Shown here: piece by piece, positions 16,520 through 45,587 of the stretch
Layout of the letters: every line of letters begins with the position of its first letter
How positions within the stretch are numbered: the first letter of the stretch is position 1
Assembly (NCBI GenBank): GCA_017528085.1
Contig: JAFXPH010000007.1
Span: 11,285-75,284 of the forward strand
Length of the DNA: 64,000 nucleotides
Source: Clostridia bacterium
GTDB taxonomy: Bacteria > Bacillota > Clostridia > TANB77 > CAG-508
Reading direction: 5' to 3'
Translations under genes and position numbers: made by a program
Notes under the pieces: generated by a model
Told to the model about the DNA's origin: nothing
The model's input: only the letters and a program-made list of their open reading frames with translations
The model's database searches: none

Positions 16520-16528
16520 GAGAATAAT

Positions 16529-23521: not shown

Positions 23522-23609
23522 CAAAAATAATTAAAAAAATAGAAAAAGAAAGTAGGCAATTTTGTCTACTTTTTTTGCATTTTTTTACATTACAATTGTG
23601 TTAAAAATA

Positions 23610-23638: not shown

Positions 23639-23681
23639 TATGTAAGAGAATCTATAATTAGGTGGAAAGGCGGAAAAATCC

Positions 23682-25698: not shown

Positions 25699-27696
25699 AT
25701 GTTTGGTAAAAAAGAAGAAGTTACAAGCGAACTTGAAGTAAAAGAGCCGGAAGTAAGTGGATTAAAGAAAAATGAAAGTTCATTTAAAGATTTAATTGCT
25801 CCTGGTGGAATCGATTGTAGTTACACAAACCACATTGAAATTTCATCAATGAGAACTAGATATGCAAGAAGCATGATAGTAGCAAATCTTCCAAGAATGT
25901 GTACTTTCCCAGAATTCTTAAGAGGACTATATACATTTGGAGATATAAACGTTTCGGTATTCATTAATCCAGTAAGTGAATCATCATCACAAACGGATTT
26001 AAATAGAACTATCAATGAAATCGAATCAGAAAGAATTGTAGCTATAGACAGAGGTGATATCAACCGTGAAAGAATCCTAGCACAAAAGAGAGAAGAAGCT
26101 GAGGAACTTCGTGATGGTATCGCAGCTGGTTTCAATAAATTATATGATTCTACAATAGTTGGAACATTATTTGCATACAGTATGGATGAACTTGATAAAT
26201 ATACTGAGTTACTTACAAACGAAATGGCAAAAGGCCTAATTGATATTAAACCAGCTTGGGCAATCCAAGAAGCAGCATTTAGAACTAACATGCCATTCTG
26301 TGATAATAAATTAAATAAAGCTCATACATTTGATAGAAATGCGATGTCAACAGTATTCCCATTCTTCGTATCAGATGTTGGACATGAGCAAGGTATTCCA
26401 CTAGGATTTAATAAACAAACTGGACTACCAATTCTATACGATAACTTCAGTTCTAAACTAACAAATTATAACATGGTTATATTTGGTAAGTCTGGTGCTG
26501 GTAAATCTGTTACAATCAAAACTATTACAGCAAGATCTGCAGTTTTGATGGGAATTGAATCATTAGCACTTGATGCTGAAGGTGAGTACGGTGTAGTTGC
26601 TGAATCACTTGGTGGTGTTAACGTAGTATTAAGCCCTAACTCAAAAACAGTTATCAATGTTTTCGATATAGAGCCAGAAAATGTTAAAGATGAAATTACA
26701 GGAAAAGAAAGAACTGTTCTTTCAGTAGAGAATAAAGTTGAAGACGTTACACAAGGTTTGTTAACAATGGCTAGAGGTTCTACAAGATCTCAAGAAGTTA
26801 ACGAGCTTACAAAACAAATTATTTCAGAATCAGTTGCAGAAGAATATGCTGCACTTGGTATTACTGATAACGTTGAAAGTTTATATGTAAGAAATGAAAC
26901 TCAAAAAATAAACTTTAATCAACAAGGTTACTTAGGAAGAACAAAGAAAGAGATGCCAACAATTGGATCTTGGTATGCAAGAATTTGTAGAAAGGCTGAA
27001 GAAAATGAGAACCCTGACTACAGATTCCACTTCAGTTACCTAGTAAAGGTTATGAAACAATATGTTAGAAAGTATCAAGGACAAATGGCATACTTCGATG
27101 GACAATCAACATTTGAATTGTTAGAAGGAGTTCCTTTCATTAACATAGATATTTCTCAATTAGAGGAAAGATTTGCTAGACCTTTGGCACAACAAATCAT
27201 GCTTTCATGGGTTTGGGAAAAATATGTTAAGAAAAATTCAGAAGATAAAACAAAAGCTTCTAAGAAAAGAGTTTTAGTTGATGAGGCATGGATGCTTTTA
27301 CCATACCCAGAAGCTGTAGACTTCTTAAATACAATGGCAAGACGTGCCAGAAAAAGAAATGTTTCTCTAGCAGTTATTTCACAAAAATTCCAAGACTTCT
27401 ATGAGAAACAAGAAGTACAAGCAGTTTTAACATCATCTGAAACAAAATTATTCTTAGCACAAGATAAATCAGAGATTGAATACTTAAGAGAAGTATTTAA
27501 ACTTAGTGAAGGTGAGGCAGGATTCTTAATCACATGTAGTAGAGGTGAAGGATTACTTAAAGTTGGTGGAGATTCAGCAATTTTAGCAATTCAACCTACT
27601 AAGAAAGAGTTTGAATTCGTTGAAACTAACCTTACAAAACAAATTGAGATGGAAAGACAAAGACGTGAGGCAGCAGAAAAACAAAATCAAGGATAG
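25699..27696 (+). CDS. VirB4-family T4SS ATPase
   Basis: Gram-positive VirB4-type N-terminus (DLIAPGGID...RYARSMIVANLPR), Walker A GKSGAGKS, Walker B VLVDEAWML, then RKRNVSLAVISQ. No TM segments. Confidence 0.85.
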   Translation: MFGKKEEVTSELEVKEPEVSGLKKNESSFKDLIAPGGIDCSYTNHIEISSMRTRYARSMIVANLPRMCTFPEFLRGLYTFGDINVSVFINPVSESSSQTDLNRTINEIESERIVAIDRGDINRERILAQKREEAEELRDGIAAGFNKLYDSTIVGTLFAYSMDELDKYTELLTNEMAKGLIDIKPAWAIQEAAFRTNMPFCDNKLNKAHTFDRNAMSTVFPFFVSDVGHEQGIPLGFNKQTGLPILYDNFSSKLTNYNMVIFGKSGAGKSVTIKTITARSAVLMGIESLALDAEGEYGVVAESLGGVNVVLSPNSKTVINVFDIEPENVKDEITGKERTVLSVENKVEDVTQGLLTMARGSTRSQEVNELTKQIISESVAEEYAALGITDNVESLYVRNETQKINFNQQGYLGRTKKEMPTIGSWYARICRKAEENENPDYRFHFSYLVKVMKQYVRKYQGQMAYFDGQSTFELLEGVPFINIDISQLEERFARPLAQQIMLSWVWEKYVKKNSEDKTKASKKRVLVDEAWMLLPYPEAVDFLNTMARRARKRNVSLAVISQKFQDFYEKQEVQAVLTSSETKLFLAQDKSEIEYLREVFKLSEGEAGFLITCSRGEGLLKVGGDSAILAIQPTKKEFEFVETNLTKQIEMERQRREAAEKQNQG

Positions 27697-27707: not shown

Positions 27708-28958
27708 ATGTTTAAAAAATTCATTACAAAATTATTTATTTGTATTTTGTTATTTAATTTTATATTTTTAAACTCAGCTTATGTTCCACCTTCTTTTGCA
27801 AGAGAAGATAGCGAACCAACAAAAGAACAAAGAACTTATGCAGAAAATAAAGTTGAAGGCGTTGAAGGAAACACTATTTTTGCTAGTGCAGTTGGTGGCG
27901 AAGGAGATAATAACTCCTATGGTGGAGTTGTTACAACAGTTTTAGCATCAATCTTAGGAATAGTAACATTGTTATTTGATTTAATAGTATTCCAGGTTGA
28001 TATTGCAGCTGGTGTATTAAGTAATACGACAGAAGATATAGCTTCTGAAGGTGGAGGAAGCAGTGAAAAACTAAATTTTTTCTTAACAATAGAGAGAATA
28101 GTTTTCAATAGAATTCCAATCTTTAATGCAAATTATTTTGATACTGAAGATGAATATAAAGTTGGAGAAATAACATTAACATCTTCAAAGTTGGTTAATG
28201 CGATTAAAGAAAATGTTGCAACAGTATATGGATTTACAAGAATTTTAGCAATAGCAGTTGCACTTCTAATGTTAATTTATATTGGTATTAGAATGGCAAT
28301 GTCTACAATTTCAGCAGATCAAGCAAAATATAAGAAAATGTTTATATCATGGGTTGAAAGTATTGTTGTATTATTCTTACTAACATACATAATGGTAGCT
28401 ATTATTACATTTGGTGAGATACTTACTGGAATATTCTCAGATTTAAATAATCAAGTTTCAAAAATGGTTGATGAAACTGGAGCAGAGGTTACTTACAAAG
28501 TTGAAGAAGAGTTAAGACTAGATGTAATAAGAGTTGGATTAAAATCACTAGGTGTAACATTGGTTGCATATTCAATTATTTATTTGGCTTTATTATTCAT
28601 GATATTAAAATTTGGATGGCTATATTTAAAGAGATTCTTCTCAATAGGATTCTTGATTGTTATAGCTCCGCTTATTACAATTACATACTCAATGGATAAA
28701 GCAGGTGATGGTAAAGCACAAGCATTCTCAACATGGACAAGAGAATTCTTAGTTAATGTATTAATACAACCATTACATGCACTAATATATTTAGTATTTA
28801 TAGCATCATGTGCACAAATTGCAAGAGTTGCACCATTCTTATTCTTATTCTTCTTACTAAGTTTAGGAAAAGCAGAACAAATGGTTATGCAAGTATTCGA
28901 CTTAAAGAAGGGATTTGAACTTGGTGGACTAGATAAATTCTTTGGTGGAAAGAAGTAG
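27708..28958 (+). CDS. VirB6/TrbL-like polytopic membrane protein, paralog 1 (core only, no tail)
   Basis: Shares with the three larger paralogs the ecto-motif IVFNRIPIFNANYF, the hairpin GIRMAMSTISADQAKYKKM and the core motif APLITITYSMDKAGDGKAQAFSTWTREF..LIQPLHALIY. Confidence 0.6.
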   Translation: MFKKFITKLFICILLFNFIFLNSAYVPPSFAREDSEPTKEQRTYAENKVEGVEGNTIFASAVGGEGDNNSYGGVVTTVLASILGIVTLLFDLIVFQVDIAAGVLSNTTEDIASEGGGSSEKLNFFLTIERIVFNRIPIFNANYFDTEDEYKVGEITLTSSKLVNAIKENVATVYGFTRILAIAVALLMLIYIGIRMAMSTISADQAKYKKMFISWVESIVVLFLLTYIMVAIITFGEILTGIFSDLNNQVSKMVDETGAEVTYKVEEELRLDVIRVGLKSLGVTLVAYSIIYLALLFMILKFGWLYLKRFFSIGFLIVIAPLITITYSMDKAGDGKAQAFSTWTREFLVNVLIQPLHALIYLVFIASCAQIARVAPFLFLFFLLSLGKAEQMVMQVFDLKKGFELGGLDKFFGGKK

Positions 28959-28959
28959 T

Positions 28960-30213
28960 ATGAAAAAAAACAAAGATAATTCAATTGTTTTAAAAATATT
29001 TGTATTAGTAGCACTTATAGTTTTGATTTTAGTAATAATATTTTTAGGACATGAAAGAAATAGAATATTAAATGAAGAAAATGAAAATATGATTGCAGAG
29101 GAAACTGCTCCAAAAAAAGATTCTGATGAAGAAAAATCATCATATTTATGGATTTTGGAAAAGTATAATGTTAAGTATATAAGAACATTTTACAATAAAA
29201 TATATGTAGAATTTCCAAAGAATCTATATGAAACAGATGGCTCAAGTAATAAATCATATTTTTATGGAATAATTAGAGAAATGGCTGATTATTTTGATCA
29301 GTATTTCTACCTAATAGATGAAAAAAATAATATTGAAATTAGAGTAGTATTAAATAATGATGGTACTTTTAGAGTATTTATAAATGGTATAGAAAACTAT
29401 TATGATAGTTCATCAGGAAAAGATTATGCTGAAATAGAAAATCTTGAAATTGGTGAAAAGAGTAATATGGTACTTCATAGTGATATGTTTTTTACAATGA
29501 CTAGAGAAAAATTCTCTTATAAATCAGTAATAGAAGACTTAGGACCTAAAGATGCTATACCAAGTGAAGATGCAACAGATGAACAATCTATGGAAATAAA
29601 GAAAGCAATTGAACAAGGATATGAATCTTATCAAGGTGGGAAAGCATTAGTAAAACCATTTGGTAGATATAACTATTTTGCTGCAAATTTAGTATTAAAG
29701 AAAGGATCTAACGCACCAAGCTTTTTAAATGTAGAAGATCCATATGATTTAAGACAAGTTGCAGAAAAATATACTGATTACATGGATGGAAGCCCTGAAA
29801 GAGGATTTTTACTATTTAGAACAAATAGAAATTATATCTTCTTCTATAGAGATGAAATATCAATTTATCCATACTATTACTCATTAAACGATACATTTGA
29901 AGAAGCAGTAGAAGGATATACTATGAAAGGTATGGACTTTAGAAATTTTGCATCTTTAATATCAGTAGATTGTAAGACAAGTACAGAATTTGATTTAGAT
30001 TATGAAAATAAAACATTTCATGCAGTATATCCATGCTGCGGATTTGAAATTGATGTTGATGATAATGTAGGAAGATGTAATATAACTATTTACAAAAACT
30101 ACTATGTATCAAATAAAATAAAAGAACTTGCGAAAGCAGGAAAAGTTACAGTAAATTCTAACGTTGATTTACTACAAAAAACAGAAGAAGAAAGACGAGC
30201 TTCAAATAGATAA
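28960..30213 (+). CDS. N-terminally membrane-anchored ectodomain protein (paralog A)
   Basis: The ATG at 28960 lies 1 nt after the upstream stop. It has one TM. The segment NIEIRVVLNNDGTFRVFINGIENYY matches DITVEVKCVNRRISKIIINGLEDYF in the next gene. Confidence 0.5.
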   Translation: MKKNKDNSIVLKIFVLVALIVLILVIIFLGHERNRILNEENENMIAEETAPKKDSDEEKSSYLWILEKYNVKYIRTFYNKIYVEFPKNLYETDGSSNKSYFYGIIREMADYFDQYFYLIDEKNNIEIRVVLNNDGTFRVFINGIENYYDSSSGKDYAEIENLEIGEKSNMVLHSDMFFTMTREKFSYKSVIEDLGPKDAIPSEDATDEQSMEIKKAIEQGYESYQGGKALVKPFGRYNYFAANLVLKKGSNAPSFLNVEDPYDLRQVAEKYTDYMDGSPERGFLLFRTNRNYIFFYRDEISIYPYYYSLNDTFEEAVEGYTMKGMDFRNFASLISVDCKTSTEFDLDYENKTFHAVYPCCGFEIDVDDNVGRCNITIYKNYYVSNKIKELAKAGKVTVNSNVDLLQKTEEERRASNR

Positions 30214-30242
30214 CTATAAAGATTTTGAAGAAAGGATTGCTC

Positions 30243-31766
30243 ATGTCATTAGAACAACTAAAGACTAACAAAATATTTTGGATTACTTCAATAGTAGCTT
30301 TAATCTTAGCCATAATAATAATAAAAATAGCTATGAGTTCAATAACTCCAAAACCTGTTGATGAAGATGGAACAAATCTTTCAGTTCAATCAAGAAGATT
30401 TAAAACAATGAAAGAGTTACTAGAGTACTATGGTTGTACATATATATCTGAAAATATAGCTATGACATTAGAAGGTGAAAAAGAGTTATATTTAAAATTT
30501 AATGTAGATTTATATGCAAATGGCAAGAGCAATGAAGAATTCTTCATGTCACTAATACAGGATGTAGCAAACTTCTATGGCTATTATTCATTTAATATGT
30601 ATGATGCAGATAGAGACATTACTGTTGAAGTTAAATGTGTTAATAGAAGAATTAGTAAGATAATAATAAATGGACTAGAGGATTATTTTAGAAACAGAGA
30701 TGCTATGTTAGCTGAAGGAAAATATGTAGAGTATCCAACAACAACAATGGCTGTAAATTCACAATTATTACAAAGATTGATTGATAACAATTGGTCTAGT
30801 GATGCAGTAGGATTTGGATCTAAAGAGTCTATTTATAACAAATACGATGTATATTATGATGAGGGCATTAAGGTAAGAATTGAAAATGGAAAGGTATATA
30901 ATATAGTCTTTACAGAAAAATACGGTGGAGAGGTTGTTGATGGTATAGTACCAGGAACAGGTATGTCTACTGTAAGAGCAACTATTGGTACACCAGCATT
31001 TGAAGATGGACCAGTAGGTGTAATAGGATACAAGACAAAGAAATATTATGTGTTCTTTTCAGAGAATGAGATATCTGTTTATAGAGTATACGACGCAAGT
31101 ATGGTAGATTTTATAGCTCTATATAGAGATTTTAAAAATGATAATATTGACTTACTAGAATTAATGAACAAACTTACAGAAAAGTGGCCTGATTATGATG
31201 TATATGATTATACTTCTAATTCAGTATTTATATCTTATCCGCTTCAAGGTTTAGATATAAAGATTAATTATGATAATCAAAGAGGAATATTATTCTATAA
31301 TAATTTTAATTATTCAAGGGACACTGTAATGTCTATGGTAGATGCTGATGAAGACTTAGTATCAAAATTAGGTATTGATGGTGTATTTGAAGGAGAAAAA
31401 AGAAGAATTAATACTCTTAAAGATTTGAATAAAAAAGCTGATGAATTTGAAAAAAATTTAGCTATAACAAGCAATTTATATAAATTATACATAGAGAAAG
31501 ACTATGCTGATGTAGGCATAAAAGCATATTTTATTTCTAAAGATGGCTCATTACCAAACAGAGAATTGAATGATACAATTTCTACATTTACTTGGATTAA
31601 TGATACATATTTTGTTTATTCAAAATATGGAAGAGGAATCTACTTATATGATGTATCAAATGGTAGAACTCAAGCTTTAGTTGAAGGTAAACAAGCATTT
31701 GAAATTAAATCATTTGAAAACAAGATACTAAAATATGATGATGATGAAGTCAATTTAGAATTCTAG
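30243..31766 (+). CDS. N-terminally membrane-anchored ectodomain protein (paralog B)
   Basis: I chose the ATG at 30243 (RBS gaaagga) over the listed TTG at 30225. It has one TM and shares its N-domain with 28960..30213. Confidence 0.5.
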   Translation: MSLEQLKTNKIFWITSIVALILAIIIIKIAMSSITPKPVDEDGTNLSVQSRRFKTMKELLEYYGCTYISENIAMTLEGEKELYLKFNVDLYANGKSNEEFFMSLIQDVANFYGYYSFNMYDADRDITVEVKCVNRRISKIIINGLEDYFRNRDAMLAEGKYVEYPTTTMAVNSQLLQRLIDNNWSSDAVGFGSKESIYNKYDVYYDEGIKVRIENGKVYNIVFTEKYGGEVVDGIVPGTGMSTVRATIGTPAFEDGPVGVIGYKTKKYYVFFSENEISVYRVYDASMVDFIALYRDFKNDNIDLLELMNKLTEKWPDYDVYDYTSNSVFISYPLQGLDIKINYDNQRGILFYNNFNYSRDTVMSMVDADEDLVSKLGIDGVFEGEKRRINTLKDLNKKADEFEKNLAITSNLYKLYIEKDYADVGIKAYFISKDGSLPNRELNDTISTFTWINDTYFVYSKYGRGIYLYDVSNGRTQALVEGKQAFEIKSFENKILKYDDDEVNLEF

Positions 31767-31778
31767 AAAGGTATTAAT

Positions 31779-34700
31779 ATGAAGAGATCTACATTAAAGA
31801 AATTAAAAAGAGTAATTGTGATTTCAATTATTCTCATAGGTTTAATTTATTTAATAGCAGGACCAATTTCATCTGCAGCAGAGCTTCCTAAAAAAGGAGA
31901 GTTTTATTATGCAGGTACATCAAAAGGTTCATATGTTGCAACTGAAAACATATTTAAGTGGCTATTTAATATATTAGCAGAAATAATTCAGTTTATATTC
32001 CAATTAATATTATTCATAATAAGAATGATATTCGTAGGTTGGGCTGCATTAATATCTGAGGCTTTGACAGGAACATTTACAGCAATTACTGGTGTTAAGT
32101 ATGATCCATCTGATGTTGATCAATCTAACATCAATGTTATCAATGTTCAAGATAATATAACAGTTGAAGCTATTGTATTTAACAAAATCCCAATATTTGA
32201 TGTTGATTTCTTTAATTTTGATGAAATGGATCCTGTAACATATACAGATGCTGACAGAAAAGATGCAGGAAAAGCAATTAAAACACCTACAGGTAAAGAC
32301 TTATCAGATATGAGATGTTCAACATGTCAACGTGTTGAATCTATTGGACCACACACTTTTAAACAAGATAAAGAAAAGGGAATATGTGTTTGTAAGGTCG
32401 AAGAGTGTACTTGTAAAGCTTGCGAAACAAGAAGAAACTTGATGGAACCACATGATGAATTTAACCCGATGCAATTGATAAAGACAAACGTAGCTGAATG
32501 GTACTATACAATTAGGTTAATGGCTTTGGTTGGAATGCTTTTAGCATTAGGAGCAATTGGTATTAAAATGGCAATTTCAACTGTGGCATCAGATAAAGCA
32601 CAATATCAGCAAATGCTATCATCATGGGTAGTAGGAATTATATTATTATTTGGTATTCATTACTACATGATTTTAATGATAAATATAAACAATATTTTGA
32701 TTGATACAGTTGTTAATTATTCATCAGAGACATCAAAAGATATTGCTGAAGCAACTGTAAGTGATTTTGGAGTTTCAGCTTCACAATCAGACATGGAAAT
32801 TAATTTATATGAACAAGCAAGAACAAGAGCATACGATCCAAACTTATTAAATGGATTAACAGGTACAATACTTTATTGTACATTAGTATATTTCTCAGTA
32901 AGATTTGCTATTGTATACTTCAAGAGGTATTTTACTATAATGATTTTAGTACTTATGGCTCCTGGTGTTGCACTTACATATGCAATACAAAAAGCATTTT
33001 CAGGTAGAAGTCATACATTATCATTATGGTTACAAGAGTTCTGCGTAAATATTATTATTCAATCAGTTCACGCATTAATTTATGCAGCCTTCTTATCAAC
33101 TGCACTTAGAATTGCGTTTGATTCATTACCAGGAAGTATTTTTGCATTTATTATATTAAACTTTATGCTTAAGGCACTACCAATATTCAGAAAGATATTC
33201 AAAATGAGTAGTGATGGCGGACTATTAGATGATGCTATGAAAGCAGGTAGCCCTGAAAGATTAAAAGCAATGAAAGATTCAGCTGTTGGTGCAGCGTTAG
33301 CAGCTAAACCGTTAGCAAAATCATTTGCTAAATTACCAGGAACAAAAGCTGTAGTAGGATTAGTGAAATCTCCTGTAACAATTGGTGTTGAAGCTCATAG
33401 ACAATCACAGATGAAAAAGTTTGCAAAAGAGCATAATGAAAAAGTAGATCAAGCTAAATTAGATTTAAAAGATATATTTGCTCAAAACACAAAGACTTAT
33501 GGTGAAGGAACAGATGAAGAATTAGCAGAAAGAGCAAATAATGGAAGCTCTGAAGAAATAAGACAACAAGCGTATAAACAATTAAAAGAAAGAAGAGATG
33601 CTATTTCAATGAGAGCAATACAAGGGCTTCCATTAAGTAGTATTAAAACAGATACAAAAGAAGAAGAGACAAATGAAACAGAAGAGACAAATGAAACAGA
33701 GACTAATAAACAAGATCAACTAAATGCTAACTATTCTGCAGTTGGTATGGCAGGAGCTTCAGAAGCTCAAATATTAGAAGCTGCAAGACAAGACTTCTTA
33801 AATAGACATAGCGAAAATGCTCCTAAGGTTAAGCCAGAAAGTATTGTATCTGTAAGTGCTAAGAACTTTGCTAGAAATTTAGGTATGATGGCTGATTTTA
33901 GAAATAAATATGACATTATTTATGATAAAGATATGCATGCTCATTTCAAGAAGAGACATATACCAAAGACACAATATAATAAAAATACTGGAAGATATGA
34001 AGAGACAAGTGCTCATAAACAAATGAGAGAATTATACTCATTAAGGACTGCCTTAGGTGCTTCACCAGAAGAAATGAAAGCACTAAAAACATTCTTGAAA
34101 GATACAACAATTGGTTCATTATCATTCTTTACATGTATAGCTGGTATGGGTACAGTGGTTGCACATCCAAAGATTGGACTTGCCCTATTAGCTACAGGTA
34201 GCCAATATGTTAAATTGTATTCCCAAAATAAGACAATTAGAGGGGTTAATAAAAAGAGAAAAAATAAGGCTTATGCATTTTATGATTATTCTCCTGGAGC
34301 AACATTGGCAATGGGAAAAATAGGTTCTGTTGAAGCATCAATTGTAAGAAGAGAATTTGAGACTTTTATTCAAAAAAATGAAACTAAATCTTTAAGAGAT
34401 GTTGATTTAAAATATAATCTTGGAGCAGTTAGTTCTTCAATGTATGCTGCAGAAGGACAAGAAGGTGGAGAATATGCAACTCAATATTTAAATAGAAAAT
34501 TAAGTGAATTATCTCCAGAAGAACAAATGAATTTATTCCTTAAAACGGACTTTGCAAAGACATTGGAAGCTAGTGATATAGAAGCTGCAAAAGAAGGAGC
34601 TCAAAGAGATTTCTCTGAGGTTCTTGAAAAAGATTACCATGGAAAAATAGAAGAATTCTTTAAAGCTATGAATCAGGCAGAAAAACCAGATGAAATGCCA

Positions 34701-36329
34701 GCTACACTTAAATTTGCAGACAAACATTTTGGAACAATGGCTAAAGGATTAGATGCTATTTTTGAAGCAGAGGCAAAAACAGCAAAACAAGCACAAGATG
34801 CTTTTGTTGAAGATGCTCTACTTATTGCTACAATGCAAACAGCTAGTGAATTCAGAAAGCGAATAGAGGAAATCAAAGAAGACGAACAGAAAAAATATGA
34901 TGAACATGAGAGAAAACTTCTATTTGAACCAGATGAAGAAAATGGTTTAGATCAAAAAGAGGCAGAGGCAAGAGAAAGAGCAATAAAAGGATTCTTTGGT
35001 ATTTCAGTTGCTGTAGGTGATGAAGAAATAGTAATGGATGATCCTGTTATAGATGAAAGAAAGATAGTTAGACAAGCGGTATTATCTACAGTGGGATCAA
35101 AAGATGATATAGCAAGATTAGTAAAAAATTCAGGTAATATCGGTGACGTTAAAGGTAAAGCAGTAAGTGAAATAAAGAATAGATTAAAAGATATGGGCTT
35201 AACAGAAGATAGCCCAGAAGCTAAGAGATTATATCAAGAATTAAATAGTAGAGTTGAACAAGAGATTAAGACTGTTATTGAACAAGCTCAAGCTTCAGGA
35301 ATTGGTAAAAAACCAACAGAAGCACCTGAAAAAGGAAAAGCTGTTGAACCTTTATTATCAGAAGTTCCTGAACAATTTAATGACGAACAATTTATCAAAG
35401 ATTTTAAAGATCCTGAAAAAGCAGATTCAAGACCAAAGGTTAAGATTACTGAATTTGAGAAAAAACAATTAAAAGATTCTTTAACAAAGACCATAAAAGA
35501 TGAAATTCAAGCTGATAGTAAAAAGACTTTTGGGGAAGCTATTACTCAAGAGGATGTAAAAGCAAAGATATTAGAACAATATGTTAAGAAAACAAGAGGA
35601 GAAAATGTTAAGGTTGAGAGTTTAACTGAATCACAAAAAGCTTTTGCAGAAGCTCAAGTTGATCAATTCTTAGCTGATGTTACTGAAAAATCTAAAGATA
35701 CTACTAGACAACAAGGAGTACCTGAACCAAAAGCGGAACAAACAGTAACTCCTAACGCAGGAATTGGAAATCCAGATGCTGGACCTGAACCAGTTCAAGC
35801 AAAACGTTCTCCAGTACAAGTTACTTTAAAAACAAGGGTAGATAGAAAACCTGAAGATGTTAAAAAGAGAATGGAAGATATTTCAGAAGGATTAACTAAG
35901 GCAGCTATGGCTAAACCAGAAGATAAACAAAAAGTTGAACAATCAATAATCGATATCTTTAAACAAGGAGAGGAAACTGAAGATCCTGCATTAATAAGAA
36001 ATCAAACTCAAGCAGCGTTAGATGCGATGATTTTAAACGCTCAATTACAAAAGTTAAATTTAGCAACAGCAAGATTTGAAACATCAAGAAATTTGGAACC
36101 AATATCTGTAAAAGGTGACGCAATGAAATCAAAAGAGAAAAAAGAAGCAAGAAAAGCTATGTCATTCTTAGAAGAAATTAGTAAAGAAGAAAACAAAGAA
36201 CTAAGAGATAGGGTTCCAAAGGAAGAGATTAAGAAAAAAGAAGAATTATATGACGAAGCTAGACTTGGTTATACAGCAAATATAGTAGGTATGATAGAGG
36301 CCTCTTTAGGCAAAAAAGAGAAGAAATAG
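31779..36329 (+). CDS. Giant VirB6/TrbL-like protein, paralog 2 (1516 aa; ~480-aa membrane core plus ~1000-aa charged tail)
   Basis: Motifs IVFNKIPIFDVDFFNF, GIKMAISTVASDKAQYQQM and MAPGVALTYAIQKAF...WLQEF..IIQSVHALIY. A Cys-rich insert spans aa 180-215. The tail is K/E/A/Q-rich with no TM. Confidence 0.6.
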   Translation: MKRSTLKKLKRVIVISIILIGLIYLIAGPISSAAELPKKGEFYYAGTSKGSYVATENIFKWLFNILAEIIQFIFQLILFIIRMIFVGWAALISEALTGTFTAITGVKYDPSDVDQSNINVINVQDNITVEAIVFNKIPIFDVDFFNFDEMDPVTYTDADRKDAGKAIKTPTGKDLSDMRCSTCQRVESIGPHTFKQDKEKGICVCKVEECTCKACETRRNLMEPHDEFNPMQLIKTNVAEWYYTIRLMALVGMLLALGAIGIKMAISTVASDKAQYQQMLSSWVVGIILLFGIHYYMILMININNILIDTVVNYSSETSKDIAEATVSDFGVSASQSDMEINLYEQARTRAYDPNLLNGLTGTILYCTLVYFSVRFAIVYFKRYFTIMILVLMAPGVALTYAIQKAFSGRSHTLSLWLQEFCVNIIIQSVHALIYAAFLSTALRIAFDSLPGSIFAFIILNFMLKALPIFRKIFKMSSDGGLLDDAMKAGSPERLKAMKDSAVGAALAAKPLAKSFAKLPGTKAVVGLVKSPVTIGVEAHRQSQMKKFAKEHNEKVDQAKLDLKDIFAQNTKTYGEGTDEELAERANNGSSEEIRQQAYKQLKERRDAISMRAIQGLPLSSIKTDTKEEETNETEETNETETNKQDQLNANYSAVGMAGASEAQILEAARQDFLNRHSENAPKVKPESIVSVSAKNFARNLGMMADFRNKYDIIYDKDMHAHFKKRHIPKTQYNKNTGRYEETSAHKQMRELYSLRTALGASPEEMKALKTFLKDTTIGSLSFFTCIAGMGTVVAHPKIGLALLATGSQYVKLYSQNKTIRGVNKKRKNKAYAFYDYSPGATLAMGKIGSVEASIVRREFETFIQKNETKSLRDVDLKYNLGAVSSSMYAAEGQEGGEYATQYLNRKLSELSPEEQMNLFLKTDFAKTLEASDIEAAKEGAQRDFSEVLEKDYHGKIEEFFKAMNQAEKPDEMPATLKFADKHFGTMAKGLDAIFEAEAKTAKQAQDAFVEDALLIATMQTASEFRKRIEEIKEDEQKKYDEHERKLLFEPDEENGLDQKEAEARERAIKGFFGISVAVGDEEIVMDDPVIDERKIVRQAVLSTVGSKDDIARLVKNSGNIGDVKGKAVSEIKNRLKDMGLTEDSPEAKRLYQELNSRVEQEIKTVIEQAQASGIGKKPTEAPEKGKAVEPLLSEVPEQFNDEQFIKDFKDPEKADSRPKVKITEFEKKQLKDSLTKTIKDEIQADSKKTFGEAITQEDVKAKILEQYVKKTRGENVKVESLTESQKAFAEAQVDQFLADVTEKSKDTTRQQGVPEPKAEQTVTPNAGIGNPDAGPEPVQAKRSPVQVTLKTRVDRKPEDVKKRMEDISEGLTKAAMAKPEDKQKVEQSIIDIFKQGEETEDPALIRNQTQAALDAMILNAQLQKLNLATARFETSRNLEPISVKGDAMKSKEKKEARKAMSFLEEISKEENKELRDRVPKEEIKKKEELYDEARLGYTANIVGMIEASLGKKEKK

Positions 36330-36342
36330 AAAGGAATTGGAC

Positions 36343-39000
36343 ATGAGACTAAAAAAGAAAAAGATACTTGTTAGTATTTTAATAGTTATTTTATTATTAA
36401 GTACAATTTTTAGTGTTCGATCTATAGGTGCTACATTAGGAGAAGCCTTAACGGATATTCTTGGAACATTCGTAGGTATTCTAACATGGCCTGTAAGAAT
36501 CATTGCACTTGGAATTGCATACTTAATGGATAGAATTACAAGTTCAATTGCATATTTAGATGGAGGAACAAGTACACCTGGTAAGTTCTTTACACCATAT
36601 GAAATCTTATTTAATAAGATACGTATTACAGATATAGATTTCTTTAATTTTCAAGGACTTTCAGAAGATTGTGCAACATACAAAATTAGAGAAGCTGTAG
36701 CTCAATGGTACTATTTTACTAGAATGATAGCTATAGCAGCTTCATTAGTAGTATTAGCTTATGTTGGTGTTAGAATGTCTCTTTCTACAATGGCACAAGA
36801 TAAAGCTAAATACAAAAAAATGTTGGTAGATTGGGCATCAAGTGTTGCTTTAATATTCCTACTTCATTACATTATTATATTTATTTTAGCAGTAAATACA
36901 GCTTTGGTTAATGCAATAGGAGGAACTGCAGGTGCAAAAGGTGATGAAATATCTGATCAAATAGGTGGAATTGCAAATGCATCTTTAGGTATTTCTGTTT
37001 ATGCCATAGGCGCTACTATAGTATTTACATTATTAGTAAAACAAACATTAGGTTTGCTACTTGCTTATATCAATCGTATGATTAAGTTAGCTTTCCTATT
37101 AATAATTGCCCCATTAATTACAATTACTTATTCAATAGATAAGATGGGTGATAATAAAGCACAAGCATTAAATGCATGGTTAAAAGAGTTTGTATATACA
37201 ATTCTTTTACAACCATTTCACTGTATTATATACATGTCTTTAATAGATATAGCTTATAGTTTATTGGCAGAATCATCTGTTGAGGATGAAGGTTCTTTAG
37301 CTGCATGTATATTGGCATATTTATTCATAAAATTCTTAACAGAAGCAGAAAAATTAGTTAGAAAGATATTCGGATTTAAAGATACAGATACAGGTACTAC
37401 TTTAGGTAGTGGTATGGCTGCTGCCGGTGCTACATTAGCGCTTTCTAAAAACATAGGTAGTACAGTTGGTAAAGGTGTTAGATTTGCAAAAGGAGCTTTA
37501 CCAGGAGCTATGGCAGCTGCAGGTAAAGCAGCAGATAAAGCTTCAAATGCTCTTGGAGCAGCTGCAACTAATGTTAGAGCAGCTAGTAGAGCAATAGGAA
37601 AGAAAGACCTTGTCGATGAAAAATTAGGTATTAATTCTGGTGAAAAGGCTTCAGGTAATGTATTCAGTAGAATGAAACAACAAAAAGAAGCATTGAATGC
37701 AGCAAGACAAGCATATAAAAACGCTGATGCAACAGGCAAAGAAAGAATTAAGTATACAAGAAAAACAGCTAGAGAAGGTGAGAAGACAGATAAAGCTTAT
37801 AATGCAGGTAAGGTACTTACTGCAAAGCAAATGGCTGAAAATAGAAAGACTAGAGCTGCAGATATGAGAAGCGAAAAATTCCAAGAAACTGCACAAAAAG
37901 AAGCTGAAAAAACAGTTAAGCAAAAACAAGAGAGAAAAGAAAATAGTAGAGTTAGAAAAAGCTTTAGAAAAGCAAGAGGAGTTGTTCGAAAGGTTAATGG
38001 TGTTGCTTCTAAGATAGTAAACAACGAGTTGACAAGAACAGCATTAAAAGGTGGTGTAGCTACTTTTGTTGGTTCTTGGAGTTCTGATAAATCAATGGCT
38101 GCAGCTATAACAGCAGGTGTTGCTGGATGGAAAGTAACAGATGAAGCACTTAAATATACAGGTGGACAAGTTAAGAGTGATCTTAATGAGAAATATGCTG
38201 CTGCAGGAATTACAAGTGCAGAAAAAGCTATGGAGTTGTACGATGAAAATGATGAACACTCATATGCTGAACGAGTTAAAGATGGAAAGGCAGATTTAAG
38301 AGAACAAGGAAAAGCTGATAGAGAAGCAAATGAAAATAGCTTAAGTGAAAGTGAAGTTAATAGAGTTTTAGGAGAGATGTCTAGACAATTAGCTACTAAT
38401 GCTAGTGCATCATTACAATCAATATTAGATAAAGCATTAGGCGATAGCCAAAATAAAATGTCACAAGCTTTTGAACAAAAATTAAAAGAACTATATAATA
38501 ATCAAAAGAATGCTAATGCAGTATCATCTATGAGTAATGCATTCCAATTAGGATTCTCTGAAAGAATGGTATTTGGTACAGCTGATAGAGAGAGTACACA
38601 TATATCTTCTGCATTTACTCCTAAGGATCCAGATGCTGTTGATGATAAATACAAATTTGAATCTGGTGCTGAACCAGATTCAGCAGACACAGGAGGACCT
38701 GATATACCAAGCCCTGAAGAAATGCAAGAAGAAATTAATAATAGAGTAAACGATATGATGAGAGACATTAATGAACAACCTACACAAGTACAAGAAGTAG
38801 TTGAAAAAAGAATTACTGAAATCAAGAGATCATTTGATACTTCAAAACCAGATCATTCAATACAAGAATTAGATGCAATAATAAATAAATTAGCGGGAAA
38901 CAATAGCCCAGAGGCTGAGGCTATAAGACAAAAGGCTACAGCTGCTAAAGCAGATTTAGAAAAGCAAGTTAGGGAAAACTCAGGAGGAGAAAACAAATAA
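36343..39000 (+). CDS. VirB6/TrbL-like protein, paralog 3 (core plus ~500-aa tail)
   Basis: I preferred the ATG at 36343 (RBS aaagga) to the listed TTG at 36337. Motifs ILFNKIRITDIDFFNF, GVRMSLSTMAQDKAKYKKM and APLITITYSIDKMGDNKAQALNAWLKEF..LLQPFHCIIY. Confidence 0.6.
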   Translation: MRLKKKKILVSILIVILLLSTIFSVRSIGATLGEALTDILGTFVGILTWPVRIIALGIAYLMDRITSSIAYLDGGTSTPGKFFTPYEILFNKIRITDIDFFNFQGLSEDCATYKIREAVAQWYYFTRMIAIAASLVVLAYVGVRMSLSTMAQDKAKYKKMLVDWASSVALIFLLHYIIIFILAVNTALVNAIGGTAGAKGDEISDQIGGIANASLGISVYAIGATIVFTLLVKQTLGLLLAYINRMIKLAFLLIIAPLITITYSIDKMGDNKAQALNAWLKEFVYTILLQPFHCIIYMSLIDIAYSLLAESSVEDEGSLAACILAYLFIKFLTEAEKLVRKIFGFKDTDTGTTLGSGMAAAGATLALSKNIGSTVGKGVRFAKGALPGAMAAAGKAADKASNALGAAATNVRAASRAIGKKDLVDEKLGINSGEKASGNVFSRMKQQKEALNAARQAYKNADATGKERIKYTRKTAREGEKTDKAYNAGKVLTAKQMAENRKTRAADMRSEKFQETAQKEAEKTVKQKQERKENSRVRKSFRKARGVVRKVNGVASKIVNNELTRTALKGGVATFVGSWSSDKSMAAAITAGVAGWKVTDEALKYTGGQVKSDLNEKYAAAGITSAEKAMELYDENDEHSYAERVKDGKADLREQGKADREANENSLSESEVNRVLGEMSRQLATNASASLQSILDKALGDSQNKMSQAFEQKLKELYNNQKNANAVSSMSNAFQLGFSERMVFGTADRESTHISSAFTPKDPDAVDDKYKFESGAEPDSADTGGPDIPSPEEMQEEINNRVNDMMRDINEQPTQVQEVVEKRITEIKRSFDTSKPDHSIQELDAIINKLAGNNSPEAEAIRQKATAAKADLEKQVRENSGGENK

Positions 39001-39012
39001 AAAGCTTAAAGA

Positions 39013-41625
39013 ATGACTAGAAAGGGAAAAAGTATGCTAAAAGTTTCTAAAAAACTAATTGCAAGTTTATTTGTAATTATAGTAGTTTTTAATTTCATAG
39101 GATCAACATACCTTAACTATTCATATGCTGCTGCTGAAGATGTAGACTTAGAAGATGTTGTAACGGTTATAACTAACGTTATGGGAGGAATAGTATCAAT
39201 AGCTATGTGGCCTTTAAGACTTAAGGTTACAATGGTTGCTATTGTTATTAATGTTATAGAAGCTACTGTTGCTACTATGGATAATACCGGTGGAACAACG
39301 AAATTCTTTATTACTCCATATGATATTTTCTTTAATAAAATTCCACTATTAGACATTGATATTTTTGATACATCAGGAACGGGAGTTTTAAGTGAGATAA
39401 GAGGAAAAGTTGCCGAGTGGTACTATGCAATGAGATTAGTAAGTGTTGCAGCTTTAGTCGCTGTATTAGGTTACATTGGTATTCAAATGGCTATTTCTAC
39501 TATGGCAGATGATAAAGCAAAATATAAGAGAATGCTAGTAGACTGGGTAGCCAGTGTAGCAATATTATTCTTATTACACTATATTATGATTTTTATCATA
39601 ATGGTTAATAGTGCGCTGGTTAATGCAATAGACTCATTTGTTACAAGCTCAACAATGGCTGGTTATGATGACCAAACAATACAAGATGCTTTCTCAAGTA
39701 TGGCAATGAAAGCACTTGTAGGCATTGGTATGGATTCATTGACAGCAACAATAGTATTTGCGTTATTGGTGTTCCAAACAGCAGGATTTATAGTTTCATA
39801 CTTAAACCGTATGATTAAAGCTTGTTTCTTGGTAATAATTGCACCATTAATAACAATTACTTATTCAATAGATAAGATTAAAGATCAAAAATCACAAGCA
39901 TTGGATGGATGGCTTAAAGAGTATGCATACACAATACTTATTCAACCATTCCATTGTATAATATATGCTACTTTTATATCTATAACATATAAATTGATAG
40001 GAGATCCATCTGAGTTATTACCATTTGATGATATTAAAAAGATAGTAAGCCCAGATTACAACCAATTAGTAGCAGGTTTATTTGCAATATTTGCATGTAC
40101 ATTTATATATACTGCTGAGAAACTAGTTAGAAAAATATTTAACATTAGTGACGATGCAAGTAAAACATCTATGGCTGCCGGTGTTGCAGTTTCAGTTGCT
40201 GCGGTTGCAAATGCTAAAAAACTTGGAGCTAAAACAAAGGCTGGTTTAAATATGGCTTCTGAAGCAACTAAGAAATTTGGAGAACATGCAAAAGCTTTAG
40301 GACAAAAGGTAGATAATTTATCACAAAAAGATAACGCACTTGGCTCAGCTATAAGAGGAGCAAAAGGTGCAGCAGGAAAGGTATCAAATAGTAAGTTAGG
40401 ACAAGGTGTTAAAAAAGCTTCAGGTGCAGTAAAAAAAGGTGTTGGACGAGTTAAAGCATCAGATAAGTATAAGAAATTCGCATCTGGAATGGATAGATTA
40501 ACTGCAGGAGTTAATAATGTATTAAAAGCTCCTAAAAGTTTAAATGATAAATTGGCAGGTATAGCATCAAATGAAAAAAATTCAAAAACTAAAAGATTTT
40601 TTGCTAATATAGGATCAAGAGCTTTAGCAAAAGCAAGATCATCAGGTAGAACAGGAAATGTAGCTAAGTGGTTGACTACTTCAGCTATGTTAGCAGCAGG
40701 CAAAGGACCTTTAGAAGCATATGGTGCTGCTTCTGGAATAGGCGAAGGTGTAGACTCACTTATGTCATATACAACAGGTGAAATTTCAAAAGGTGCTGCT
40801 GACTTGAAAGGAGCTTTTGAAGGATTACCAGATAATGAAACTGTTTCAAATTTAAAGAGTACACTAAGTTCATTAGAAAGTTTAAAAGAAACAGCTGATA
40901 AAACAAGTGCTGAAGCTGCGAACTTACAAAATAATGCTGATAATATTCAAAAACAAATGGATAAAGTAGAGAGACAAATGAATACGGCTGGAAATCCAAC
41001 TCAAAGAGCAGATTTACAAAATCAGTATAGTAGTTTATCTAAAAAGAGAGATGGATATTTAGAAGAGTTAGATAAAAAGAAAAAAGATCTGCAAGCTGCT
41101 CAACAGAATTTGGCAAATGCATTAGGTAAAGATAAATATAATGAAGATGATTATAATAAAAAACATAAAGAACTAGAAGAAAATATTGTTCAAGAACAAG
41201 CAAGCCAATATGCTGATTACTTTGACCAAATACAAAGTGAAGGAAAAGCAGGAAGATTTGCTAATGGAGTAAGTCAGATAGAAAAATCAAGGGAAAGAAG
41301 AGTTCTTGAATTATCAGTAAAAAATGAGTTAAAAGAATTAGATGCTGATGATCAATCTAGAGATGTAATTAATCAAATTTATAGTATGGCATCTGCTGGA
41401 ATGAGTACAAGTGATATCACTTCAGCTATTCAAGGTCAAATTCAATCAATAGTAGCAGCAAGATCAGGAAAAGTAGATTTTTCTCGTTTGATATCAGCTG
41501 TTCAAGAATTAGGAAAATTCGAAGAGCAAGCAAACTTGTATAACTCAATAAGTTCTGCTAGTTCAGTTAACTTGTCAAATTATAGGCTTGCAGAAGCAGT
41601 AGCTAGAAGACAAATGGAATCATAA
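39013..41625 (+). CDS. VirB6/TrbL-like protein, paralog 4 (core plus ~500-aa tail)
   Basis: The alternative start at ATG 39034 is possible. Motifs IFFNKIPLLDIDIF, GIQMAISTMADDKAKYKRM and APLITITYSIDKIKDQKSQALDGWLKEY..LIQPFHCIIY. Confidence 0.6.
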   Translation: MTRKGKSMLKVSKKLIASLFVIIVVFNFIGSTYLNYSYAAAEDVDLEDVVTVITNVMGGIVSIAMWPLRLKVTMVAIVINVIEATVATMDNTGGTTKFFITPYDIFFNKIPLLDIDIFDTSGTGVLSEIRGKVAEWYYAMRLVSVAALVAVLGYIGIQMAISTMADDKAKYKRMLVDWVASVAILFLLHYIMIFIIMVNSALVNAIDSFVTSSTMAGYDDQTIQDAFSSMAMKALVGIGMDSLTATIVFALLVFQTAGFIVSYLNRMIKACFLVIIAPLITITYSIDKIKDQKSQALDGWLKEYAYTILIQPFHCIIYATFISITYKLIGDPSELLPFDDIKKIVSPDYNQLVAGLFAIFACTFIYTAEKLVRKIFNISDDASKTSMAAGVAVSVAAVANAKKLGAKTKAGLNMASEATKKFGEHAKALGQKVDNLSQKDNALGSAIRGAKGAAGKVSNSKLGQGVKKASGAVKKGVGRVKASDKYKKFASGMDRLTAGVNNVLKAPKSLNDKLAGIASNEKNSKTKRFFANIGSRALAKARSSGRTGNVAKWLTTSAMLAAGKGPLEAYGAASGIGEGVDSLMSYTTGEISKGAADLKGAFEGLPDNETVSNLKSTLSSLESLKETADKTSAEAANLQNNADNIQKQMDKVERQMNTAGNPTQRADLQNQYSSLSKKRDGYLEELDKKKKDLQAAQQNLANALGKDKYNEDDYNKKHKELEENIVQEQASQYADYFDQIQSEGKAGRFANGVSQIEKSRERRVLELSVKNELKELDADDQSRDVINQIYSMASAGMSTSDITSAIQGQIQSIVAARSGKVDFSRLISAVQELGKFEEQANLYNSISSASSVNLSNYRLAEAVARRQMES

Positions 41626-42187: not shown

Positions 42188-42206
42188 AATTGGAAAGGAG
42201 TAACAT

Positions 42207-43230: not shown

Positions 43231-43294
43231 GATAGACTTTATATTAAAAATGATATAAAATATATTTGTAAAAATGGATGAAAGGAGTGAAATT

Positions 43295-44764
43295 ATGTTA
43301 AAAGATAGTTTTGATAAAAAAGTAAATGATAATAAATCACTCCCAGAAATTTTTGCAGATTTAAAGAAATCTCAGAAAGAGGTTTCTGAAGGTACAAAGG
43401 AAATACCAAAAGTACCTAACACAAGTAATATAAAGAAAAAACATTATAAGATAGAAGAGTATGTCAATAGGTTTAAGGATAGAGATTATAAGTTTATGAA
43501 AAAGATAAATATTCATAGATTTAAGTCTTTAGATCATGTTACATACATACTAAAAACTAATAAAAAAGTAAGAGTAATTAGTTCTTCTGTAATAGGTGCT
43601 ATCTTAATATTTGTTATGATGCTTTCTTATACAAATTATATATATGCCACAGATTTTTCTATTCAAGAAGATAAGAAGCAAGTAGTAGGAAGTTTTGAAG
43701 CAAACGAAAATACATTTGATATTGAAAGAATTATAGAAACAAATTCTAGTATTAAAAGAGAGAAGAAAATAGTTAAAGAAACATGGGATATCCAATATGA
43801 AACTCAAGTCGAACCAACACTAATGTATCCAGATGGAGAAGAAGTAATAATTCAAGAGGGAAGTTATGGAAAAGAGAATGTTACTTTAATTAAAACTTTT
43901 GAAAATGGTGAAGAACTTGATTATAAAATACTAGAAAGAGATAGAGTAGTATCTCCAGTAGATAAAGTCGTACAACGTGGTACAAATAAATTCTTAGCTA
44001 AGAATAATATTCATTTTGGAGATATAGTTTATTTAAGTGCTATAACAGATCTTAAAGATAAATGGACAGATTCATCAAATACTATAATGACAGTTGGTGC
44101 TTATACACAAATGCAACTTTTAGATGCAAATGAAGAATGGTGCAAAGTTAGCATTGAAGGTATAGAAGGATATATGAGAACTGATAATGTTGTTACTGAA
44201 TATTCTTCACCAGGAATTATAGAAAAGACAAGAGTAACTAAAATACTATCAGAAGTAAATTTTGAAATGCCACTGAATGAACCTAGTGGATTGACAGCAG
44301 GTGACTTTAGAAAGGTACTTTCTGGTAATATTAATGATAGAAATAAGATATTTGAAAATAATGCTGAAGCATTTTATATAGCTGAGCAATTATATCATGT
44401 AAATGGTTTATATTTAGCTGCGATAGGAATACATGAAAGCGCTTGGGGAACATCAAAGATTTCTTTAGATAAGAAAAACCTATTTGGCTATGGAGCAAGT
44501 GATGGTTCACCATATGACTCAGCATTCGACTTTGAATCATATCAAGAAGGTATAGAAACATTAGCTAAATCAATGGCTAAATACTATCTAAATGATGCAG
44601 GTGTTGATGTACAAGGAGAATTATCTACAGGAAAGTACTATAATGGTAATACTTTATCTGCAGTTAATATTAGGTATGCATCTGATCCTGAATGGGCTAA
44701 TAAAGTATACAGCAAGATGTCAAGTTTGTACTCAAGATTAAAATTAGGAGTGTTTGATGATTAA
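43295..44764 (+). CDS. Cell-wall hydrolase with TM anchor, G5 domain, SH3-like domain and N-acetylglucosaminidase domain
   Basis: I chose the ATG at 43295 (RBS aaaggagtg). It has one TM, a G5-like segment ending VVQRGTNK, an SH3b-like segment (EEWCKVSIEGIEGYMRTDNV) and a glucosaminidase core (LYLAAIGIHESAWGTSKISLDKKNLFGYGA). Confidence 0.8.
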   Translation: MLKDSFDKKVNDNKSLPEIFADLKKSQKEVSEGTKEIPKVPNTSNIKKKHYKIEEYVNRFKDRDYKFMKKINIHRFKSLDHVTYILKTNKKVRVISSSVIGAILIFVMMLSYTNYIYATDFSIQEDKKQVVGSFEANENTFDIERIIETNSSIKREKKIVKETWDIQYETQVEPTLMYPDGEEVIIQEGSYGKENVTLIKTFENGEELDYKILERDRVVSPVDKVVQRGTNKFLAKNNIHFGDIVYLSAITDLKDKWTDSSNTIMTVGAYTQMQLLDANEEWCKVSIEGIEGYMRTDNVVTEYSSPGIIEKTRVTKILSEVNFEMPLNEPSGLTAGDFRKVLSGNINDRNKIFENNAEAFYIAEQLYHVNGLYLAAIGIHESAWGTSKISLDKKNLFGYGASDGSPYDSAFDFESYQEGIETLAKSMAKYYLNDAGVDVQGELSTGKYYNGNTLSAVNIRYASDPEWANKVYSKMSSLYSRLKLGVFDD

Positions 44765-45584: not shown

Positions 45585-45587
45585 TAA

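Follow-up and report, generated by a model that had tools for sequence, protein, structure and literature searches.

Four large membrane proteins encoded in a type IV secretion system (T4SS) gene cluster of a Clostridia bacterium each contain one helix–loop–helix hairpin of approximately 78 residues that corresponds to an entire mature VirB2-type pilin. As judged from profile comparisons, the similarity of these hairpins to the pilins of the cluster is one of shared ancestry and not of generic transmembrane-hairpin composition. The window analysed here, by which the whole stretch of 64,000 nucleotides (nt) is meant (Clostridia bacterium assembly GCA_017528085.1, contig JAFXPH010000007.1, positions 11,285–75,284), carries the cluster at 20.1–44.8 kb, on one strand and in DNA of approximately 30% G+C. 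Eight genes of the VirB2/T4SS_pilin type are followed by a PrgI/VirB3-like gene, a two-gene VirB4, four genes for polytopic membrane proteins (B6a–B6d) and a cell-wall hydrolase gene; two proteins with a single transmembrane (TM) segment and no family match are encoded between B6a and B6b. A first-pass annotation of this DNA had proposed that one structural unit occurs free in eight copies and embedded in four, and profile comparison, shuffled controls, natural decoys, a register peak and invariant residues all bear this out. The same annotation took the relationship to be undescribed for T4SSs, which is incorrect: homology of the N-terminal part of VirB6/CedA to pilins, including that between Agrobacterium tumefaciens VirB2 and VirB6, has already been reported (Beltran et al., 2023, Nat Commun 14:666, PMC9905601). 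The shared ancestry of VirB6 and VirB2 is already in the literature, and the present case is a confirmation and a better model family, not a new principle.

The large proteins have five to seven hydrophobic helices, and three of the four carry long hydrophilic extensions, with C-terminal tails of 500–1100 residues. Their genes, with lengths in amino acids (aa), are as follows.

27708..28958, forward strand: B6a, 416 aa, the minimal form; AlphaFold2 (AF2) model with a predicted local distance difference test score (pLDDT) of 75.7 and a predicted template-modelling score (pTM) of 0.71.
31779..36329, forward strand: B6b, 1516 aa, with a long hydrophilic C-terminal extension; the core aligns with B6a.
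36337..39000, forward strand: B6c, 887 aa, an extended form, assigned by core alignment; weak match to NCBIfam MMCAP2_0566 (E 1.5e-4).
39013..41625, forward strand: B6d, 870 aa, an extended form, assigned by core alignment.

Ahead of the hairpin come the signal peptide, an acidic stretch, a hydrophobic helix of 35 residues and a beta-rich domain; a conserved, strongly hydrophobic multi-helix core follows it. The conserved helix upstream occupies aa 71–105 of B6a (nt 27918–28022) and lies between two acidic, presumably extracytoplasmic regions; it may cross the membrane, be re-entrant or be buried in an oligomer, and the choice affects the topology model. The hairpins and their motifs, all four of which are present exactly as quoted in the first-pass annotation and are flanked on both sides by hydrophobic helices as it had stated, are located as follows (HMM, profile hidden Markov model; ORF, open reading frame).

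28185..28427, forward strand: B6a hairpin, aa 160–240, with the motif GIRMAMSTISADQAKYKKM (first residue aa 193, first base nt 28284, ORF 27708–28958); pilin HMM E 6e-7, Pfam T4SS_pilin E 0.0024 at aa 170–228, hhalign.
32469..32702, forward strand: B6b hairpin, aa 231–308, with the motif GIKMAISTVASDKAQYQQM (first residue aa 261, first base nt 32559, ORF 31779–36329); hairpin HMM E 2.7e-29, pilin HMM domain E 0.24 at aa 253–303.
36667..36909, forward strand: B6c hairpin, aa 111–191, with the motif GVRMSLSTMAQDKAKYKKM (first residue aa 144, first base nt 36766, ORF 36337–39000); hairpin HMM E 3.3e-32, pilin HMM domain E 0.026 at aa 112–180.
39391..39621, forward strand: B6d hairpin, aa 127–203, with the motif GIQMAISTMADDKAKYKRM (first residue aa 156, first base nt 39478, ORF 39013–41625); hairpin HMM E 1.5e-31, pilin HMM domain E 0.043 at aa 133–197.

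The free counterparts of the hairpin are eight ORFs of 118–129 aa at 20156–24056, each encoding a signal peptide and two hydrophobic helices.

20156..20545, forward strand: pilin 1, 129 aa; signal peptide and two-helix domain, Pfam PF18895 E 1e-8 (35.5 bits, above the 26.6-bit cut-off).
20776..21165, forward strand: pilin 2, 129 aa, 88% identical to pilin 1; pilin HMM E 1.5e-37.
21375..21746, forward strand: pilin 3, 123 aa; alignment and pilin HMM.
21830..22201, forward strand: pilin 4, 123 aa; alignment and pilin HMM.
22254..22634, forward strand: pilin 5, 126 aa; alignment and pilin HMM.
22737..23093, forward strand: pilin 6, 118 aa; the top match of the hairpin HMM in the window (E 4.3e-6).
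23132..23521, forward strand: pilin 7, 129 aa, the one quoted in the first-pass annotation; PF18895 E 5.4e-5 (23.6 bits, below the cut-off).
23682..24056, forward strand: pilin 8, 124 aa; alignment and pilin HMM.

Close homologues of these proteins carry precomputed PF18895 annotations, and many also carry PF04956. On these family matches the eight small proteins are genuine VirB2-type pilins, and would as such polymerize into a lipid-containing pilus of the conjugative type. The AF2 model of pilin 1 contains helices at residues 2–33 (the signal peptide), 47–84 and 87–127; the Foldseek matches of this model were all generic helical hairpins, such as ATP synthase c subunits and FadA, and were uninformative. 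Pilins 1 and 2, whose mature domains are identical, are a recent tandem duplication, and identity in the rest of the array is 23–51%. Long antisense ORFs opposite pilins 1 and 2 (20122–20424 and 20733–21179, minus strand) are probably spurious.

Comparison of single sequences was rejected as sufficient evidence for the relationship. The local alignment of 21 positions between pilin 7 and the third paralog in the first-pass annotation holds, with 16 positives, and contains ten identities rather than the nine counted there. Its Smith–Waterman score of 53 is marginal against shuffled sequences (35.9 ± 6.2, maximum 60; z approximately 2.8), and over the full lengths of the two proteins the algorithm aligns the signal peptides instead. 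Profile–profile comparison gave a much clearer signal. With the eight pilins and the four cores alone, hhalign placed pilin residues 48–120 onto B6a 162–235 (E 1e-5); with 41 pilins and 49 members of the large-protein family the register was unchanged (probability 92.9%, E 3.6e-7), and the isolated hairpin segment scored higher still (probability 95.5%, E 1.4e-8). The whole mature pilin is covered, residues 47–122 aligning with B6a 161–237, and the two pilin helices at 47–84 and 87–127 coincide with the helices at 161–198 and 202–251 of the B6a model, where pLDDT is 86–94.

Three kinds of control bear on whether any hairpin of similar make-up would score as well. When the columns of the pilin alignment were permuted within helix 1, loop and helix 2, which preserves composition and topology, the hhalign score fell from 40.9 to 13.0 ± 2.7 (maximum 19.6; none of 80 shuffles reached the real score; z approximately 10), and a reversed profile scored 10.9. 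Similarity no better than that between random TM hairpins, which the first-pass annotation had named as a refutation, is not what these shuffles or the natural decoys below show. Shuffling the helices only gave 20.8 and the loop only 25.2, so both helices and loop contribute. Natural decoys were provided by 4,018 ORFs of at least 50 aa from the window and 80 related genomic loci. Among these, every ORF matched by the hairpin HMM at E ≤ 1e-3 was a pilin (293 of 369; best 3.8e-10), and the pilin HMM recovered 143 of 225 large proteins, its only other matches being four proteins with a C-terminal pilin domain. The latter are a 434-aa and a 243-aa protein in each of two loci, L046 (3011–4315 and 5538–6269) and L047 (1365–2669 and 3892–4623), in which the pilin domain forms the last 60–70 residues (pilin HMM E 7e-12 and 7e-18); these pilins behind large N-terminal regions are possibly minor or tip pilins. 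The third control is the register itself: mean identity between hairpins and pilins over the 78 aligned columns is 20% in register and 8–13% at shifts of 1–7 residues.

The match extends over the wider family. The pilin HMM detected the hairpins of 82 of 146 independent representatives (50% identity) at a domain E ≤ 1e-3 and of 130 at E ≤ 0.1, with both short and extended forms among those matched, and T4SS_pilin, the sole recurrent Pfam match, was found in 34 of 49 family members at E ≤ 0.1 (best 6.3e-5). Within the window, the hairpins of B6b, B6c and B6d are taken to be pilin-like by transitive homology because they are clearly homologous to that of B6a (hairpin HMM E 1e-29 to 1e-32), and the pilin HMM still lands on the right segment in each. 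A second pilin-like unit was sought in the large proteins and rejected: the C-terminal core was negative, and an N-terminal match (E 1.2e-4) shrank to seven signal-peptide columns on realignment.

Hairpins and pilins have in common a conserved basic loop, G-I-[RK]-x ... [DE]-K-A-x-x-K-K, and conserved positions in helix 2. The shared positions (B6a/pilin 1) are L189/L75, G193/A or G79, I194/I80 and R195/K81, followed by D or E204/E or D89, K205/K90, A206/A91, K209/K94 and K210/K95; helix 2 adds F223/F108 and I228/I113. Conservation of A206/A91 is 96% in the B6a family and 99% in the pilins, and that of K209/K94 is 93% and 100%. Net charge averaged over the alignments is +2.9 in the hairpin loop, −4.4 and −3.4 in the flanks before and after it, and +1.9 in the pilin loop. 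By the positive-inside rule, hairpin and pilin are both predicted to have the N-terminus outside, the loop in the cytoplasm and the C-terminus outside; the two loops would thus lie on the same side of the membrane, and the opposite placement, which the first-pass annotation had named as fatal to its proposal, is not what the charges predict.

The large-protein family comprises at least 4,272 clusters at 50% identity (E ≤ 1e-3), or 2,771 at E ≤ 1e-30, and has short forms of approximately 400 aa and extended forms of 700–1200 aa or more with long charged C-terminal tails. It is present in at least 261 species genomes of uncultured gut Clostridia, including Ca. Scatovivens and Clostridium sp. CAG:571, and also in one complete chromosome of 1.8 Mb; the members examined belong to no Pfam family. 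Most of the 80 related loci show a layout of six to eight pilins followed by three or more large proteins. Hairpins resemble the pilins of their own locus no more than those of other loci (identity 0.201 versus 0.199; the difference is positive in 35 of 72 loci), and the absence of a same-locus excess led us to reject recent gene conversion or same-genome co-evolution of hairpin and pilin. The pilin subclasses are about equally distant from the hairpins (16–21% identity), and no particular subclass was retained as nearest relative or as an 'initiator pilin'. Identity is 47% within the hairpins and 36.5% within the pilins. A single ancient duplication or fusion, preceding the diversification of the lineage and of its pilin paralogs, fits this pattern; ongoing gene conversion does not.

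The designation of the large proteins as VirB6-like is based on the position of their genes directly after VirB3/VirB4, on the polytopic hydrophobic core and on the top Foldseek matches. The five best PDB matches of the B6a model are all TrwI/VirB6 chains of R388 (E 0.16–0.51, target-normalized TM-score at most 0.53), and no other candidate for VirB6 was found in the cluster. We infer that the large proteins probably serve as the central platform of the system, in the role of VirB6.

A mechanism can be proposed in which the hairpin would correspond to the N-proximal helix pair that alone anchors VirB6 in the membrane (PMC12857230). The large proteins would assemble into an oligomeric platform, by analogy with the TrwI and PrgH pentamers, and the resulting ring of hairpins would expose a pilin-like membrane surface, a 'layer zero', that seeds the filament: free pilins would dock on it via helix packing of the pilin–pilin type and would then move up into the five-start filament as it grows. 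The shared [DE]-K-A-x-x-K-K loops would face common cytoplasmic partners (VirB4 and VirB3) or lipid head groups, and the basic loops of hairpins and pilins would line one continuous lumen. An analogy for such templating is provided by the FliPQR/SctRST export gate, which templates the flagellar rod or the injectisome needle. Taken alone, a templating, nucleating or docking role is plausible. Such a role agrees with the co-evolution data for R388, where all 50 of the top VirB2–VirB6 co-evolving pairs fall on TM helix alpha1 of VirB6, the proposed recruitment site (PMC9259494). The combined account, in which an ancient pilin-homologous hairpin is part of a platform in the VirB6 role and docks or templates pilins, appears to us somewhat more probable than its negation. 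A bolder version is offered tentatively and is itself rather unlikely: the hairpins of a VirB6-like pentamer would constitute the zeroth layer of the pilus, setting the five-start lattice and feeding pilins into it, and the combination of three or four platforms with six to eight pilins would let a single relaxase-less, chromosomal T4SS make alternative or mixed filaments.

Several observations weigh against the combined account. All matches to T4SS_pilin in the large-protein family fall below the curated cut-off (B6a scores 18.4 bits against 26.6), and B6b, B6c and B6d have no such match; B6a alone of the window paralogs is individually significant against the pilin HMM. The hairpin is not N-terminal, as it is in canonical VirB6, and the topology assignment has the positive-inside rule as its sole basis. 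The E-values of all TrwI matches in Foldseek are below significance, no match to PF04610 (VirB6/TrbL) was found in the large proteins of the window or in 49 family members, hhalign of the family against an alignment of 42 TrwI-family sequences gave a probability of 0.2%, and PDB sequences gave no sequence link to VirB6/TrbL. Because a PF04610 link is lacking and the TrwI comparison gave 0.2%, the large proteins are treated here as filling the role of VirB6 and not as proven members of that family. For R388 TrwL and TrwI, family profiles built from 59 metagenome loci (12 VirB2 and approximately 80 VirB6 sequences, hence shallow) gave a probability of 1.4%, away from the hairpin, and the reported relationship was thus not reproduced in R388. 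Single-sequence and profile tests of R388 TrwL against TrwI and of pCF10 PrgF against PrgH gave nothing; the power of the R388 test is low, the pilin profile being likewise not significant against the true pilin TrwL.

The strongest competing explanation, which we regard as possible although rather unlikely, accepts the homology and holds that the hairpin is merely a retained membrane anchor or an insertion and export module with no pilin-specific role. This is how CedA/CedA1 were read by Beltran and coworkers, who invoked 'a common export pathway' (PMC9905601), and it accords with the signal peptide and the out–in–out topology common to both proteins and with the lack of same-genome covariation between hairpin and pilin. 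However, the loop motif and the helix-2 positions are nearly invariant in both families over thousands of clusters, beyond what a generic anchor would need, and the co-evolving residues of R388 VirB2 and VirB6 sit in this type of helix. It is improbable, to a greater degree, that the large proteins are giant minor pilins or adaptors of the base or tip, entering the filament by their hairpin and displaying their other domains. The missing VirB6/TrbL sequence membership, the long hydrophilic extensions on three of the four paralogs and the C-terminal pilin-domain fusions of loci L046 and L047 would suit such proteins, but the conserved hydrophobic multi-helix core that follows the hairpin is better suited to a membrane or stalk component than to a filament subunit, the best structural matches are to TrwI/VirB6, and the cluster would be left with no VirB6 candidate. 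Convergence or composition, by which any signal-peptide-led helix pair with a short basic cytoplasmic loop would match, can draw on the inflation of profile scores by TM segments, the marginal pairwise scores, the sub-threshold Pfam matches and the generic Foldseek hits of the pilin model, but is largely refuted and very improbable in view of the layout-preserving shuffles, the failure of every other decoy ORF at E ≤ 1e-3 (the decoys having included PrgI-like hairpin proteins as well as the remaining helices of the large proteins), the sharp peak at one register and the specific invariant residues common to both families.

The remaining genes of the cluster that have a family assignment, and the two single-TM proteins between B6a and B6b, are listed below.

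24065..24400, forward strand: PrgI/VirB3-like small membrane protein, 111 aa, directly upstream of VirB4; Pfam PrgI E 0.01 (16.8 bits, below the 27-bit cut-off).
24403..25683, forward strand: N-terminal part of VirB4 as its own gene, 426 aa; NCBIfam VirB4_plasma E 3.7e-5, profile positions 102–338.
25699..27696, forward strand: VirB4-like ATPase part, 665 aa; NCBIfam conju_CD1110 E 5.3e-61 (206.8 bits against a 325-bit cut-off), Pfam TraG P-loop domain and AAA_10.
28942..30213, forward strand: protein with a single N-terminal TM segment, 423 aa; no match in Pfam, NCBIfam or PHROGs.
30225..31766, forward strand: protein with a single N-terminal TM segment, 513 aa; no match in Pfam, NCBIfam or PHROGs.
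43274..44764, forward strand: cell-wall hydrolase with G5 and glucosaminidase domains; Pfam Glucosaminidase E 2.4e-13, G5 E 1.2e-12.

The VirB4-like and VirB3-like proteins are both related to curated families and score below the curated thresholds for membership in the mating-pair formation class FATA (MPF-FATA). The N-terminal part of VirB4 carries a TM segment, the ATPase part covers profile positions 340–889, and between the two genes lie a TAA stop codon and 15 bases in which GGAGG occurs. Nine of 12 related loci checked likewise encode VirB4 as two genes, with reading frames that vary; of the other three, two have an ATPase part that is itself divided and one has no clear N-terminal ORF. 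Given this recurrence, the split appears genuine rather than the product of a sequencing error. The G5–glucosaminidase hydrolase at the end of the cluster likely fills the role of VirB1. Further proteins with a single N-terminal TM segment (171, 321 and 276 aa) are encoded at 41672–43172 and 44754–45584 and have no Pfam match; the matchless single-TM proteins of the cluster may be VirB8-like or channel components.

The flanks of the cluster (400–19000 and 45500–63600) consist of housekeeping genes, including those for a hydrogenase, a LytR-family protein, a PBP5-type carboxypeptidase, NAD biosynthesis, MscS, an amylase and cardiolipin synthase, and neither a relaxase nor a coupling protein (VirD4, type IV coupling protein) was detected among the window ORFs of at least 150 aa that were scanned. 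The cluster is on these grounds chromosomal, and the system is a chromosomal T4SS of Gram-positive type that is apparently non-conjugative. Plasmid and phage collections contained no match to the large-protein family or to the cluster; with this result and the missing relaxase and coupling protein, origin as a mobile or conjugative element (a plasmid or an integrative and conjugative element, ICE) was rejected. NCBIfam and PHROGs supply only weak named relatives, all from Mycoplasma ICE families: Mbov_0395 (pilin-like), Mbov_0396 (transmembrane protein), MMCAP2_0566 and Mbov_0397 (VirB4). Since these are the only named relatives, Mycoplasma ICEs may share the neighbourhood of pilins and a pilin-like platform.

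Among described systems, the closest precedents for the hairpin are CedA/CedA1 of the archaeal Ced DNA-import system and VirB6/VirB2 of A. tumefaciens, in which, as here, the first TM helix pair corresponds to approximately the whole mature pilin. For A. tumefaciens, VirB2 56–119 matched VirB6 24–90 with an HHsearch probability of 66.6% and E 0.001 (PMC9905601, Supplementary Fig. 2d), and it was proposed that one protein evolved from the other. This statement is not repeated in the reviews consulted, so the homology may be called known but little noticed. The signal in the Clostridia is far stronger (probability 93–96%, E 1e-7 to 1e-8). Unlike CedA and A. tumefaciens VirB6, the Clostridia proteins carry the hairpin internally, behind a signal peptide and approximately 130 extracytoplasmic residues; they show no detectable similarity to VirB6 (PF04610) and occur as three or four paralogs per locus beside arrays of six to eight pilins. 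TrwI/VirB6, the pentameric stalk base of R388 (PDB 7O3V and 8RT9; PMC9259494), is likewise polytopic and encoded beside VirB3/VirB4 and provides the top Foldseek matches, whereas the present system belongs to a Gram-positive lineage and has no VirB5, VirB7, VirB9 or VirB10.

The system of pCF10 and other Gram-positive conjugative plasmids resembles the present one as a Gram-positive T4SS with a small two-helix pilin (PrgF) near a VirB6-like gene (PrgH), a CD1110-family VirB4 and a PrgI-type VirB3, and PrgF pilins have recently been modelled as a pilus stacked on a PrgH pentamer (2025 preprint, bioRxiv 10.64898/2025.12.18.695078). PrgF differs from the window pilins in having no signal peptide and no Pfam pilin match, and the Clostridia cluster differs from pCF10 in being chromosomal, in having no relaxase or coupling protein found in the window and in its arrays of pilin and VirB6-like paralogs. 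Patescibacteria possess a chromosomal, MPF-FATA-related T4SS with PF18895/PF04956 pilin arrays of 2–11 genes and usually no relaxase nearby (PMC12102498). Chromosomal location, pilin arrays and the lack of a relaxase are common to both systems; the present system is found in gut Clostridia (Ca. Scatovivens and relatives), and its large proteins miss the VirB6 profile, which most Patescibacteria VirB6 proteins are reported to match. A pilin-like hairpin is not discussed in that report (PMC12102498). The architecture of the large proteins is also similar to that of another, phylogenetically unrelated group. Extended VirB6 proteins of Rickettsiales and MPF-FA systems occur as tandem paralogs, some of them with very long hydrophilic C-terminal extensions.

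The question of how VirB2 pilins are recruited and assembled by VirB6 has gained urgency as pili have come to be proposed for T4SSs of Gram-positive bacteria. If the platform contains a hairpin derived from a pilin, a simple structural rationale follows, in which the surface that pilins dock on would itself resemble a pilin. Homology of the strength seen here allows the residues concerned to be named, namely G193, R195, D204, K205, A206, K209, K210, F223 and I228 of B6a and, as their counterparts in pilin 1, K81, D89, K90, A91, K94, K95, F108 and I113. These proteins also bring to attention a very large protein family, with no Pfam match among the members examined, that belongs to a chromosomal T4SS of uncultured gut Clostridia. 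Should the hairpins indeed form a zeroth layer of the pilus, this family, whose homology is unusually clear, would offer the best starting point for a demonstration that a portion of VirB6 derived from pilins serves as the template of T4SS pili.

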